From NCBI GenBank assembly GCA_964016885.1, contig OZ024753.1, forward strand, positions 37,076,001 to 37,140,000: a stretch of 64,000 nt of DNA. The letters are read 5' to 3'. The position numbers were made by a program, and so were the translations under genes. Position 1 is the first letter of the stretch. Each line of letters starts with the position of its first letter. Shown one piece after another: positions 27,915-38,780 of the stretch. Origin of the DNA: Eledone cirrhosa (taxonomy: Eukaryota). The notes beneath the pieces are model-generated. The model was not told the origin of the DNA and made no database searches. It saw nothing but the letters and a program-made list of their open reading frames with translations.

Positions 27915-28826
27915 ACGTCTCCGAACTGAGAGATCACAGCTCTGATACTATGGGCATGTGGTTAGAATATGTCAGGAAAGAATCGCTGGACAGATATGTA
28001 GCTCGGAGATCAGAGAATCACTCCAGGTAGAGCCACGACTTCTCCGAATTGAGGGATCACAGCTCCGATATTACAGACATGTGGTTAGAATGTTTCAGGA
28101 AAGAATCGCTGGAGAGATATGTAGCTCGGAGATCAGAGAATCACTCCAGGTAGAGCCACGACTTCTCCGAATTGAGGGATCACAGCTCCGATATTAAAGA
28201 CATGGGGTTAGAATGTCTCAGGAAAGAATCGCTGGACAGATATCTAGCTCGGAGATCAGAGAATCACTCCAGGTAGAGCCACGACTTCTCCGAATTGAGG
28301 GCTCACAGCTCCGATATTACAGACATGGGGTTAGAATGTCTCAGGAAAGAATCGCTGGACAGATATGTAGCTCGGAGATCAGAGAATCACTCCAGGTAGA
28401 GCCACGACTTCTCCGAATTAAGGGCTCACAGCTCCGATATTACAGACATTTGGTTAGAATATCTCAGGAAAGAATCGCTGGACAGATATGTAGCTCGGAG
28501 ATCAGAGAATCACTCCAGGTAGAGCCACGACTTCTCTGAATTGAGGGATCACAGCTCCGATATTACAGACATTTGGTTAGAATATCTCAGGAAAGAATCG
28601 CTGGACAGATTTTATAGAGAAAAACCAACCAGCAAGAAACCCAGGGGTAGACCCCCCCGAGAAAGATGGTTGGATAACATCGATGAGCTTGGCTGGTCTC
28701 GCTTGGGGATCCAGCCAGATTAGTTGGAGACAATTGCTTCTGACAGGACCCACTAGAAGGAGTGTTTGAGGACTCTGCCCCTCATTACCCTAGCAGGAAT
28801 TAGTGGGCGCAGAAGAAGAACAACAA
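27915..28826 (+). mobile_element. RTE-clade (Rex3/Expander-like) LINE 3' fragment with an internal 123-bp tandem amplification
   Basis: Translation SSEIRESLQVEPRLLRIEGSQLRYYRHVVRMSQERIAG..KPRGRP..RWLDNIDELGWSRLGI resembles the RTE ORF C-terminus. About 5.6 copies of a 41-codon unit; (gaa)/(caa) tail. Confidence 0.85.
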
Positions 28827-31947: not shown

Positions 31948-32464
31948 CATGTGTCTGCGGTCGGTGTGTGTATGTATGTATGTATGTATGTATGTATGTA
32001 TGTATGTATGAGAGCAATAGAATCTGGGAGGTAAATATTTGTGGTTGATGGATAAATTGAAAGATTGCCTACAAGGAACAATTAAGTCTACATATTTGGT
32101 AGAGATAATTAATTTACTGTGTATGTGTGTGTATGTGTGTGTATGTGTGTGTATGTGTGTTGGGCCTCCGTCGGTTGTTCAACCAGTAGAAATGCCTGCT
32201 CGTGAAATTAACTTACAAGTGGACTGAGCATTCTACAGACACGTGTACCCTAAACATAATTCTCAAGGGGACCTAATGGACCTAACGTGTGTTACATGAC
32301 TAACCTTTTCTCGAGCTGTGTGGACTTCAGAAACGCGAAATAGAATGCCTTAAGAATAAAACCCCTAGTCGACAATCGAACCCATGTCCTAACGATCAAG
32401 AACTGAACACCCTGACCACTAAGCCTTAAGGAATTTTCTCTTATAATAATTTATATTATAATGT

Positions 32465-34340
32465 TTCACATCTGGTTTGCTATATTACCTGATTTAACGG
32501 ACTATATTTCACATCTGGTTTGCTATATTACCAGCCTTGATAGACGATATTTCACATCTGGTTTGCTATATTACCTGATTTAACGGACTATATTTCACAT
32601 CTGGTTTGCTATATTACCAGCCTTGATAGACGATATTTCACATCTGGTTTGCTATATTACCAGCCTTGATAGACGATATTTCACATCTGGTTTGCTATAT
32701 TACCTGATTTAACGGACTATATTTCACATCTGGTTTGCTATATTACCAGCCTTGATAGACGATATTTCACATCTGGTTTGCTATATTACCAGCCTTGAAG
32801 GACTATATTTCACATCTGGTTTGCTATATTACCAGCCTTGATGGACTATATTTCACATCTGGTTTGCTATATTACCAGCCTTGAAGGACTATATTTCACA
32901 TCTGGTTTGCTATATTACCAGTCTTGATGGACTATATTTCACATCTGGTTTGCTATATTACCAGATTTAACGGACTATATTTCACATCTGGTTTGCTATA
33001 TTACCAGCCTTGAAGGACTATATTTCACATCTGGTTTGCTATATTACCAGCCTTGATGGACTATATTTCACATCTGGTTTGCTATATTACCAGCCTTGAT
33101 GGACTATATTTCACATCTGGTTTGCTATATTACCAGCCTTGAAGGACTATATTTCACATCTGGTTTGCTATATTACCAGCCTTGATGGACTATATTACAC
33201 ATCTGGCTTGCTATATTACCAGCCTTGAAGGACTATATTTCACATCTGGTTTGCTATATTACCAGCCTTGAAGGACTATATTTCACATCTGGTTTGCTAT
33301 ATTACCAGCCTTGAAGGACTATATTTCACATCTGGTTTGCTATATTACCAGCCTTGAAGGACTATATTTCACATCTGGTTTGCTATATTACCAGCCTTGA
33401 AGGACTATATTTCACATCTGGCTTGCTATATTACCAGCCTTGAAGGACTATATTTCACATCTGGTTTGCTATATTACCAGCCTTGAAGGATTATATTTCA
33501 CATCTGGTTTGCTATATTACCAGCCTTGAAGGACTATATTTCACATCTGGTTTGCTATATTACCAGCCTTGAAGGACTATATTTCACATCTGGTTTGCTA
33601 TATTACCAGCCTTGAAGGACTATATTTCACATCTGGTTTGCTACATTACCAGCCTTGAAGGACTATATTTCACATCTGGCTTGCTATATTACCAGCCTTG
33701 AAGGACTATATTTCACATCTGGTTTGCTATATTACCAGCCTTGAAGGACTATATTTCACATCTGGCTTGCTATATTACCAGCCTTGAAGGACTATATTTC
33801 ACATCTGGCTTGCTATATTACCAGCCTTGAAGGACTATATTTCACATCTGGCTTGCTATATTACCAGCCTTGAAGGACTATATTTCACATCTGGTTTGCT
33901 ATATTACCAGCCTTGAAGGACTATATTTCACATCTGGCTTGCTATATTACCAGCCTTGAAGGACTATATTTCACATCTGGCTTGCTATATTACCAGCCTT
34001 GAAGGACTATATTTCACATCTGGCTTGCTATATTACCAGCCTTGAAGGACTATATTTCACATCTGGCTTGCTATATTACCAGCCTTGATGGACTATATTT
34101 CACATCTGGTTTGCTATATTACCAGCCTTGATGGACTATATTTCACATCTGGTTTGCTATATTACCATCCTTGAAGGACTATATTTCACATCTGGTTTGC
34201 TATATTACCAGCCTTGATGGACTATATTTCACATCTGGTTTGCTATATTACCAGCCTTGATAGACGATTTTTCACATCTGGCTTGCTATATTACCAGCCT
34301 TGAAGGACTATATTTCACATCTGGCTTGCTATATTACCAG
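32465..34340. repeat. 43-bp minisatellite, ~43 copies
   Basis: Unit ctatatttcacatctggtttgctatattaccagccttgaagga. Confidence 0.95.
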
Positions 34341-34811
34341 ATTTGAGGAACTATTCAAGAGATGCAGTTTCCTGCGAAACAGAACGTTATGGGTTTTACA
34401 TTTTTTTTTAACAGAAAAAACTATATATATATTTGGAACATTAAGGACCTTGTACTTTTACCTTGAAATCTTTGAATATGGGGACGCTAATGAGAAAAGT
34501 ACGTTTGATGCTAATACAACTTAGAACATCACCCATATATATATATATACAAGACATTTAAACATACATAGTCAGAGAATATATATATATATTAAGTTAA
34601 AAATGTACATCTACATATGCATACTGAAATACTAGTATGCATATGAATACACACACGTATACATATGTAGATGTAACAAGTCTTTCACTGGTTACTTTAC
34701 TGTGAGTAACCCAGCTATTCTGTATGTAAACACACAGACAAACCGGTTTTTAGAGTCATACTGGTTTTCGAGGAAACACCTTTCCTCTATTCTCCAGAAA
34801 GCCAGACAAGG

Positions 34812-34856
34812 AATATTGAACTAGTTTCGTTGTTGTTACAACTCATCAGCAATATT
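34812..34856 (-). ncRNA. Minimal type I hammerhead ribozyme (copy 1)
   Basis: Minus strand AATATTG-CTGATGA-GTTGT-aaca-ACAAC-GAAA-CTAG-TT-CAATATT: intact core, 5-bp helix II, palindromic helix III, 7-bp helix I, GUU triplet. Confidence 0.8.
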
Positions 34857-35278
34857 TACCTATCTACCGGCCTTTCTGGAGAATCGTAAAAGCACATATC
34901 GTTATATGCTTTTTCTATGAAAATTAGTAGTGGGCAGACTAATTTGCATAGAGTGTGAGTACGCACCGGTTCAGCGGAGACGATAAAAACAAATAACGAA
35001 ACGAAATTAAATTTCGTTTCGTTTGTAACTCACTTTTGTATGACTGACGCTTAAACAATTAAGTTAAAAATGTACATCTACATATGCATACTGAAATACT
35101 AGTATGCATATGAATACACACACGTATACACATGTAGATGTAACAAGTCTTTCACTGGTTACTTTACTGTGAGTAACCCAGCTATTCTGTATGTAAACAC
35201 ACAGACAAACCGGTTTTTAGAGTCATACTGGTTTTGGAGGAAACACCTTTCCTCTATTCTCCAGAAAGCCAGACAAGG

Positions 35279-35323
35279 AATATTGAACTAGTTTCGTTGT
35301 TGTTACAACTCATCAGCAATATT
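35279..35323 (-). ncRNA. Minimal type I hammerhead ribozyme (copy 2)
   Basis: Identical to 34812-34856, 467 nt away. Confidence 0.8.
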
Positions 35324-36441
35324 TACCTATCTACCGGCCTTTCTGGAGAATCGTAAAAGCACATATCGTTAATTGTTTAAGCGTCAGTCATACAAAAGTG
35401 AGTTACAAACGAAACGAAATTTAATTTCGTTTCGTTATTTGTTTTTATATATATATATATTCTCTGACTATGTATGTTTATAAGTCAGTCTTGTATATAT
35501 AGATGATGTTCTAAGTTATATTAGCATCAAACGTACTTTTCTCATTGGGAGCAAGTAAAATATTTAGATATATTAGGCTGCAATTTTTATGAAATTACAT
35601 TAGATTAGATAAACTTAAATAGAGAAATGTTAATACTTCTCAGATGAAAATTCGGTAGAAAAAAATAGTTCATCCTCCCACCAGAATAAAAATTAAAAAT
35701 TTTAAATAAAACCAAGCGTAAAAGATAAAAAGAAAATAGGAAAAGAACTTTTAAAAAGGTTAAAGTGTGACCTTGATAAAATCTGGAACATTTACTGGTT
35801 CTTCTACCTTGTCACACATCCCGAAATTCCTCAGTTGGCTTTATAGAGATCATAATAAGCGTTGATATTTTCAGTTGACAACGAGGTAGGTGGAGGATAG
35901 GGAAAGATGGCTGACATCCAGATATTATTGCCTTGTAATAAATGTTATATGACAGAGTAAAATACGTATTCTATAAAATGTCAGGGTGTTATGTTTATTA
36001 TTAATGTAGTGAAAAGAGATTTGAACTAGGTTGAATTAGGCGCAGAAATTAGATGTGTGTGGTTAAAGAAATTTGTCTCGCAACCAACAAATATGGTTTC
36101 CTGGTTCGATTTGGCAACAGAAGTTTGTCCTCCACCCTATTCTTCTTGATTTACAACAAAGCTTTTTTTTTACAATATTTTTCTGCAGAAAAACGAACTA
36201 CAATCATCGATGTATGAATACCTGTTTGTGCTGTTAGATTTAGCCATTATATATGCATACACATACATGAAATACTCAAAACTTTGCTCATCAATTTCAT
36301 GAGTAGGCTGCTTCGCTGATCGTTTCAACTGGAACACTCTTCGTTGAAACCGACAGAGATCCAATATACAAATTTCGCTGAGAGTTGAGCACTTGCGCTT
36401 TTTGTTCTAATACACAGGTAAAGAAAACACAAACACATACA

Positions 36442-37840: not shown

Positions 37841-38427
37841 ATTGTATTGTCATGAGCTCGATTCTCGGTACTTTATTTCATGTTGTTCAAATCACTGAAG
37901 CTGGAAAGGCGAGTCGTACCTGTAAATTGAACACACTATGTCACATAACTGTCACACACTATGTCACATATAACTGTCACACACTATTTCATATATAATT
38001 GAAAGGACAAGCCTTGCCGCACACTGTGTCACATATAATTGAAAGGACAAGCCTTGTCACACACTGTCACATACAATTGAAACAACAAGCCTTGTCACAC
38101 TTTCACCTGTAATTCAAAGGGCAAACCTTGTCACACACACTGTCATGCTTATCACATTGTGGCCTGTTTGTCACGCTGAATCTCCCTGAGAACTACGTTA
38201 AGGGTACATGCGTTGATGGACTACTCAGTCACCAGCACGTTAATGTCCACGAGCAGGCTTTTTCCGTTTATCAAACATCTTGAAAACTCGTTCGTCGGAA
38301 CCGACGGAGGTCCAAATCTACAGTTGCCAATGAGCGGAACATATGAGAAAATAATTTTGTACCAAATGAGTTTTTAAACCCTTAAACTGAAGAGAAAAAC
38401 GTTGAAACAATAGAATCTCTGAATATG

Positions 38428-38780
38428 TTGACATTAAGGACCTTGCACTTTTACCCAGAAATCTTTGAATTTGGGACATTAAGGATCTTGCACTTTTACC
38501 CAGAAATCTTTGAATGTGGTAACATTAAGGACCTTGCACTTTTACCCAGAAATCTTTGAATCTGGGACATTAAGGATCTTGCACTTTTACCCAAAAATCT
38601 TTGAATTTGGTGACACTAAGGATCTTGTACTTTTACCCAGAAACTTTTGAACTTGGGGACACTAAGGTTCTTACACTTTACCCAGAAATATTTGAATATG
38701 GGGACACTAAGGACCTTGTACTTTTAACCAGAAATTTTTGAATATGGGAACAGAAAGGATGTTGCACTTTTACCCAGAAA
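38428..38780. repeat. 45-bp minisatellite, ~8 copies
   Basis: Unit gacattaaggaccttgcacttttacccagaaatctttgaatttgg; a lone monomer sits at ~34436-34490. Confidence 0.9.

Follow-up and report, generated by a model that had tools for sequence, protein, structure and literature searches.

Hammerhead repeats inserted head to head at (TA)n sites in Eledone cirrhosa: a probable family of non-autonomous Penelope-like elements

Animal non-LTR retrozymes are short, low-GC tandem units that carry a type I hammerhead ribozyme and no open reading frame (ORF). They form anything from dimers to long arrays, have a weak palindromic helix III and are linked to Penelope-like elements (PLEs) (PMC7229834; 10.64898/2026.07.22.740005). 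The Eledone family described here is alike in all these respects. The retrozymes of Cervera and de la Pena 2020 produce RNAs of 170-400 nt (PMC7229834), whereas the Eledone unit is larger, at 467 nt. Two fixed ends, inverted arms and a (TA)n target likewise set the family apart: the words 'inverted' and 'microsatellite' are absent from the main text of PMC7229834, and the two-ended, inverted-arm anatomy is not found in the main text of the Li et al. 2026 preprint (10.64898/2026.07.22.740005). Circles and cleavage have been demonstrated for animal retrozymes (PMC7229834; 10.64898/2026.07.22.740005); in the Eledone family both are predictions.

EN+ PLEs share with the family their partial tandems, an adjacent inverted 5'-truncated copy, an optional tail at one end and an AT-rich target (PMC8557442, PMC3846280). 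Their tail measures 30-40 nt, as against 70-75 nt in the Eledone family, which differs further in having no ORF and in placing its hammerhead 230-300 nt upstream of the ends. In anole Poseidon PAc, as in Eledone, a hammerhead lies upstream of two adjacent priming sites. In vitro, the PLE protein cuts both strands and extends them, with initiation at two neighbouring internal sites that delimit the tail, and hammerhead cleavage was not needed by the one PLE so assayed (PMC11167929). The Chlamys non-autonomous PLEs (e.g. MRC1) are likewise non-coding PLE derivatives with pLTRs and multicopy head-to-tail insertions, but the MRC1 clade lacks canonical hammerheads and has 3' sequence in common with known autonomous families (PMC8557442).

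Anatomy of the insertion and its family

The window is a stretch of 64,000 nt of the E. cirrhosa genome (assembly GCA_964016885.1, contig OZ024753.1), and positions are given within it. We number the 467-nt unit U along the minus strand, with U1 at 35371 and U467 at 34905. The features of the insertion and its surroundings are as follows.

34591-35448, no strand: whole insertion, 858 bp, two head-to-head arms of the 467-nt unit, compared with 89 other copies
34591-35371, minus strand: long (inverted) arm, a 781-nt tandem of U1-467 plus U1-314 that closes at the family's second fixed end
35369-35448, plus strand: short arm, U310-389, 80 nt, a 100% inverted copy of 34983-35062, with the family's main fixed 3' end against (TA)n
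35058-35371, minus strand: direct repeat 1 (U1-314), 314 bp
34591-34904, minus strand: direct repeat 2 (U1-314), 314 bp
35258-35350, minus strand: type I hammerhead 1 with extended helix I; core 35316-35286, predicted cut after 35286 (GUU)
34791-34883, minus strand: type I hammerhead 2; core 34849-34819, predicted cut after 34819 (GUU)
34939-34952, minus strand: motif TCTATGCAAATTAG resembling a U6-type upstream element, single copy in the insertion, with 14-nt identity to the -77 element of one host U6 gene
34902-34907, minus strand: TATA-like box in the sequence, 42-43 nt past the motif; predicted transcription start at about 34876-34872
34983-35057, minus strand: internal tail copy (U315-389) between both fixed ends, with a 14-bp hairpin at 34995-35023
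35073-35142 and 34606-34675, minus strand: long AT-rich hairpin immediately upstream of the tail, from repeat and folding analysis
34579-34592, no strand: (TA)n target, left, read from the sequence
35446-35460, no strand: (TA)n target, right, read from the sequence
34489-34578, plus strand: left arm of an older fold-back outside the element, 88% identical to the right arm
35461-35546, minus strand: right arm of the same fold-back, 88% identical to the left arm

As an earlier note on this DNA had described, the two 314-bp direct repeats are near-identical, with two differing positions and a period of 467, and the element is non-coding: no ORF longer than 40 aa lies inside 34591-35448. The outer limits given there, 34489 and 35546, do not hold, for they belong to the 88%-identical, single-copy inverted repeat, which is foreign to the family. 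That repeat has only four weak partial matches elsewhere in the genome and flanks none of the other family copies compared. We rejected it as the ends of the element, or as the terminal inverted repeats (TIRs) of a MITE or composite DNA transposon, because it is single-copy and does not move with the interior. The fold-back is older host sequence, into whose central (TA)n the element was inserted. The '5' inverted segment' of the same note exists, as the 80 inverted nucleotides at 35369-35448; it carries the main fixed 3' end, however, and it is the long tandem that forms the inverted arm.

Several other repeats lie near the insertion. A 43-bp minisatellite at 32464-34354 (44 copies, 95% alike) stops 135 nt left of the fold-back; a 46-bp tandem repeat of 8 copies occupies 38414-38780, with about one related copy at 34436-34488, left of the fold-back; and a 123-bp tandem repeat (at least 5 copies, 96% alike) spans 28000-28610, possibly starting earlier.

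The family is large. Across the 3.0-Gb host genome the 314-bp repeat has 951 candidate matches, and the 40 that were scored are all at least 99% identical. The exact end-plus-TA junction occurs 1,835 times genome-wide (control, 0), which puts the family at a minimum of 1,835 insertions. Contigs of organism A confirm the high copy number, and contigs of two other organisms match in part. In another organism (run X5, record 18), a 496-nt contig spans one whole unit at ~97% identity and a depth of 4.5; its length is that expected for a collapsed tandem or circle.

For anatomy we took the first 90 end-plus-TA places on contig C1 and dropped one identical twin, L076, which left 89 copies. An inverted arm of at least 22 nt adjoins in 63 of these, a short inverted stub is found in 10 of 19 others, and 7 run off the fetched stretch. 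The main outer end lies at U387-389 against (TA)n, and 45 of the 50 inverted arms with their outer end in view stop at U314-321. Family insertions are thus bounded by two fixed ends that lie 70-75 nt from each other along the unit. Fourteen insertions chosen solely by their match to U1-314 give a similar picture: in 13 an end at U388-389 abuts (TA)n or AT-rich DNA, and one has only the U315 end. The inner junctions between the arms are variable, mostly with overlaps of a few bases. In 28 of the 63 copies the inverted arm exceeds the direct arm in length, which means that it did not arise by folding back of the first cDNA. Eleven loci show flank matches of 19-56 nt that include letters other than TA, like a long target duplication, a feature that the window copy does not resolve. 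Variability within the unit is lowest in U434-467 (0.9%) and in the tail (1.2%).

A sister mini family (L187-L216, L251-L280) has units of ~420-540 nt with the same helix III, promoter-like motif and tail. Two hammerhead patterns give 13,340 and 18,081 matches to it (controls 0 and 511), more than 30,000 in total. Its ends fall at the homologous site with or without a preceding T5 run.

An array of 147 units, ~69 kb long, with higher-order repeats of 4 to ~25 units, lies at G000:C5:87617700-87686400 (L037-L044). Together with the position of the window copy inside an inverted repeat, this array invites a DNA-level explanation, whether a spreading satellite monomer or a composite DNA transposon with TIRs at 34489-34595 and 35444-35546. 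Such an origin is extremely improbable and largely refuted by the fixed, strand-specific ends of the family. The outer repeat is single-copy and absent around the other copies compared, and the array itself ends at U389 plus (TA)n. Common alleles of the array are, moreover, not mixed in the dispersed copies: 214T was seen in 3 of 86 loci, each time in every pass, and neither 166C (0 of 85) nor 442A (0 of 73) was seen. The array is for this reason not supported as the main source of the dispersed copies, although just ~10 of the 89 loci belong to its subfamily; it looks like a product rather than a source.

Hammerhead ribozyme and U6-like motif

On the minus strand, each direct repeat contains CUGAUGA, a 5-bp helix II, GAAA, C-UA-G and a GUU triplet, and the window copy has the full type I core (CUGANGA, GAAA and NUH; three helices, with helix I open). 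The type I hammerhead claimed for each repeat is therefore borne out by intact core elements, and by matches of both to Rfam Hammerhead_HH9 (38.6 bits, E 6.3e-8). A search of the window at Rfam's curated thresholds returned no match, the hammerheads lying below the HH9 gathering score of 52 because a minimal helix III costs score. We discarded the sub-threshold miRNA-type matches in the window as AT-rich hairpins. Folding of the extended helix I agrees with the claim (z -4.2; 0 of 200 shuffles as stable). Helix III consists of 2 bp and a 2-nt loop, too little for ViennaRNA to form a hairpin. The palindrome does pair with a second copy, at -6.6 kcal/mol, in keeping with the dimer-type hammerhead proposed earlier and with the dimer form with palindromic helix III described in PMC4209133.

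Other genomic copies keep the ribozyme core. In the sampled loci it is intact in 201 of ~210 passes, a count that takes in the window copy and the twin L076. Of 78 loci, 37 have U-A and 40 have A-U at helix II pair 64/75, and pair 31/106 is A-U in 30, G-U in 20 and G-C in 25; helix I is altered on both sides in the sister family. This covariation represents few independent events. The hammerhead is conserved and covarying in the family and is under selection.

Hammerheads with GUU are cut more slowly than those with GUC or GUA. The earlier note took the GUU triplet for a suboptimal variant, but the triplet is no defect of the window copy. It is a fixed subfamily character, with GUU in 41 loci and GUC in 38; in the sister family the triplet is mostly GUA (56 of 59 loci). 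Divergence within insertions is similar for GUU (0.85%) and GUC (0.96%), which argues that GUU lineages are mobile, and GUU is given as an active NUH site in PMC3138052. Weak cleavage is predicted from the GUU site combined with the minimal helix III.

Hammerhead tandem repeats with their own promoter are represented by newt satellite 2, with an snRNA-type Pol II promoter, and schistosome Sm-alpha, with a Pol III promoter, as cited in PMC2220036. These are the only precedents that our literature search gave for U6- or snRNA-type promoters in retrozymes or non-autonomous PLEs, in a literature that includes supplements to 10.64898/2026.07.22.740005 that may bear on the point. Unlike the newt and schistosome promoters, the Eledone motif matches the upstream element of host U6, U6atac and RNase MRP genes and is accompanied by a TATA-like box. 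Its 12-nt form at U422-433 is conserved between both mini families. Among 15 U6 loci fetched, 11 of them from one array (some with a promoter insertion) and 2 without the motif, it stands at -76 to -78 in three distinct promoters. It is also present in 1 of 6 U6atac loci and in the sole RNase MRP gene, and in none of 12 U5 loci, whose flanks reach 11.3 bits at unrelated offsets. On a weight matrix that rests on the 3 U6 promoters, the motif scores 17.3 bits, the best in the window (next, 10.5), and none of 479,684 control positions reached 13.8 bits; the matrix is coarse, since sister-family copies within the control set fell short too.

The host genes have their TATA at -30, 46-48 nt after the motif. 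A TATA at that spacing was not found in the unit, where the distance is 42-43 nt, 4-5 nt shorter. In the sister family the motif is kept in 31 of 59 hammerhead loci, the rest being truncated or lacking it, and TATA stands at +42 in 30 of the 31. The motif and TATA-like box of the unit therefore resemble a U6-class promoter but depart from the host spacing. From these similarities, the unit is likely transcribed from a built-in U6-like promoter, with a predicted start at U29-33, on the 5' side of helix I. The terminators of host U6 genes consist of T7-T10, and T runs in the unit are no longer than T4-T5, which makes read-through of the latter plausible.

The U6 genes form a tandem array with a period of ~1.8 kb (G000:C19:31780605-31840331), in which some copies have an insertion between TATA and start, and the U5 genes one with a period of ~870 bp (G000:C9:32792224-32828232). 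Promoter-less snRNA copies lie by or near (TA)n (U6atac at L246:1500, U6 at L230); they are possibly retrocopies made by the same machinery.

A U6-like promoter motif, and a main end that follows the T5 run at U383-387 with two last letters that could derive from the TA target, would also suit a SINE-like element, whose Pol III transcript ends at that run, is copied by a LINE from its 3' end and acquires inversions by L1-style twin priming. This is very unlikely. L1 twin priming is not known to produce a separate fixed second end or template overlap between arms. Here the second arm stops at a fixed end of its own, 70-75 nt upstream, and it overlaps the first arm in template position. Against a SINE-like origin there are also the sister-family ends at the homologous site regardless of the T5 run, the T7-T10 terminators of the host and the absence of a poly(A) tail.

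Penelope-like class and candidate partners

The family combines two sets of traits. Like PLEs, it has partial tandems with an adjacent inverted 5'-truncated copy (63 of 89, with a stub in 10 more), a one-sided tail between U387-389 and U314-321, and an AT-rich or microsatellite target with (TA)n flanks. Like retrozymes, it is dispersed in many copies, its low-GC tandem units being a few hundred bp long, free of ORFs and each equipped with a type I hammerhead. We consider it highly probable that the element is a non-autonomous Penelope-like element, or animal non-LTR retrozyme, copied in trans by a Penelope RT/GIY-YIG protein. With equally high confidence, this class assignment included, we regard the window copy as a young insertion of a protein-less hammerhead repeat family. 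It is a known kind of element, whose variant features are the strict two-ended TA insertion, the long tail, the mobile GUU subfamilies and the U6-like motif.

Mobilisation by a PLE, as the earlier note proposed, is supported by the two fixed ends, the inverted arms and the TA target. That note also called for a search for an autonomous PLE sharing the repeat. Among 50 of the 10,596 GIY-YIG candidates in the genome, BLAST, a profile of both mini families and inspection by eye revealed no autonomous Penelope with the unit sequence; unit matches at these loci are separate mini-element insertions. The hammerhead pattern scan of the GIY-YIG loci required C3/G8, and U3/A8 variants were read by eye. 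No PLE ORF lies beside the 60 sister-family loci, and two hammerhead patterns designed to exclude the present family gave just the sister mini family among the first 100 places listed for each. Several intact-looking RT + GIY-YIG families do end in (TA)n, one of them with ORFs of ~97% protein identity and ends ~63 nt apart. The families that end in this way include L167, L169, L176, L179, L184 and L185, and several show hammerhead-like cores downstream of the ORF; by eye, these cores are of a U3-A8 variant with a CCGG palindromic helix III.

Copied template, proposed cycle and meaning

The arms indicate what kind of RNA was copied. Had the template been a linear RNA cleaved at both hammerheads, direct arms could be no longer than 303 nt. 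Direct arms exceed 310 nt in 69 of the 89 copies, one unit in 54 and two units in 27. Breakpoints fall within 5 nt of the cleavage site in 6 of 145 cases, with 3.4 expected (p = 0.13). Because the arms cross the cleavage site without an excess of breakpoints, the template was either circular or a multimer left uncleaved. No scars occur at U84-90, which disfavours template jumping from one cleaved linear monomer to another.

These results weigh on the proposal of the earlier note that the minus-strand transcript of the window copy is cut twice and releases a 467-nt monomer, the mobile RNA. In its favour are the two intact hammerheads 467 nt apart, a palindromic helix III able to pair between them, and the strong predicted structure of the monomer (folding z -10.2). 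The proposal is nevertheless unlikely. A linear monomer caps direct arms at 303 nt, yet 69 of 89 run past 310 nt and so beyond the cleavage site. The window copy also has no promoter motif upstream of its first hammerhead, and no host gene was found in the 16 ORFs examined out of 47 long stop-to-stop frames in the window, which gave two sub-threshold low-complexity matches. Moreover, the 80-nt inverted arm of a read-through RNA is predicted to fold onto the tail that contains both priming sites.

The window copy itself is likely a dead end, because its sole promoter motif (34939-34952) lies between the hammerheads, downstream of the first. A transcript started there would include a single ribozyme and end before reaching the tail, and release of a 467-nt monomer from this copy would need read-through from outside. 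In 41 of the 89 other copies, the motif and two hammerheads occur in one arm.

Variation among passes indicates where the templates came from. Repeats in the same arm diverge by 0.84%, the two arms by 1.0% and separate loci by 6.3%. Low divergence alone proves little, because the nearest other locus is just 0.74% away, and it is fixed rare alleles that carry the argument. Forty-eight alleles that occur in no more than two loci each are present in every pass of 32 of the 77 loci, 25 of them in both arms; L110, for example, has 2 such alleles in all 6 covering passes of both arms. Both arms of an insertion come from one template source. Among the 27 loci with deep coverage, rare alleles are fixed throughout the passes in 10, and variants shared by some passes only occur in 10. 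At L081, two changes are common to only the outermost pass of each arm. Such partly shared variants would need mixed multimer templates or later conversion, as a single circular monomer is insufficient.

The same element class could therefore move with an always uncleaved, linear read-through multimer as its template, the hammerhead being a weak or protein-assisted relic and circles irrelevant to mobility. We put this at somewhat below an even chance. The missing breakpoint excess at the cleavage site (6 of 145 against 3.4, p = 0.13), the amplification of GUU subfamilies as well as GUC and the pass-specific variants of 10 of the 27 loci, L081 among them, all suit such a template. So does the finding that hammerhead mutants of anole PAc still insert in vitro (PMC11167929), as does that of 8 of 9 Xenopus retrozyme dimers uncleaved, as given in the preprint (10.64898/2026.07.22.740005). 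On the other side, rare alleles fixed in every pass of young insertions such as L110 call for a one-unit bottleneck, arms exceed two units in 27 of 89 copies, and the core is conserved and covaries between families.

By the patterns of variation, circles have roughly an even chance of being part of the cycle. The fuller reading, which we hold tentatively and consider possible rather than probable, is a self-transcribing retrozyme with a captured host U6-class promoter in a self-cleaving, circularising 467-nt RNA, copied by a Penelope dimer through double rolling-circle reverse transcription from two fixed internal sites, with both arms from one circle. For the main reading, that of a non-autonomous PLE, we propose a cycle of four steps. 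Multi-unit copies would be transcribed from the built-in U6-like promoter, reading through the weak T4-T5 runs. Two hammerheads with paired palindromic helix III would then cut slowly, so that multimers remain in uncleaved form and a fraction of the 467-nt monomers is closed into circles by ligation. The Penelope protein would nick both strands of a (TA)n target and prime each at one internal RNA site (U387-389 and U314-321). Finally, both cDNAs would extend through the ribozyme site and be joined 5'-to-5' at variable points via microhomology.

The element class is known, and the link between retrozymes and Penelope was argued in 2026 from co-occurrence and pLTR trees. The Eledone family adds evidence at the level of single insertions, in the form of two fixed priming ends, head-to-head arms and rare alleles common to both arms. 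It bears on the origin of Penelope inverted arms, for which self-priming on antisense RNA and priming of both strands are the two explanations, and its anatomy fits the in-vitro result of two-site initiation (PMC11167929). The circle-template model can be tested directly, given thousands of young copies and a unit of 467 nt. The U6-like motif offers a possible answer to how an upstream promoter survives retrotransposition, namely by being carried inside a tandem or circular unit. If the circle reading is true, the promoter would travel with the circle.
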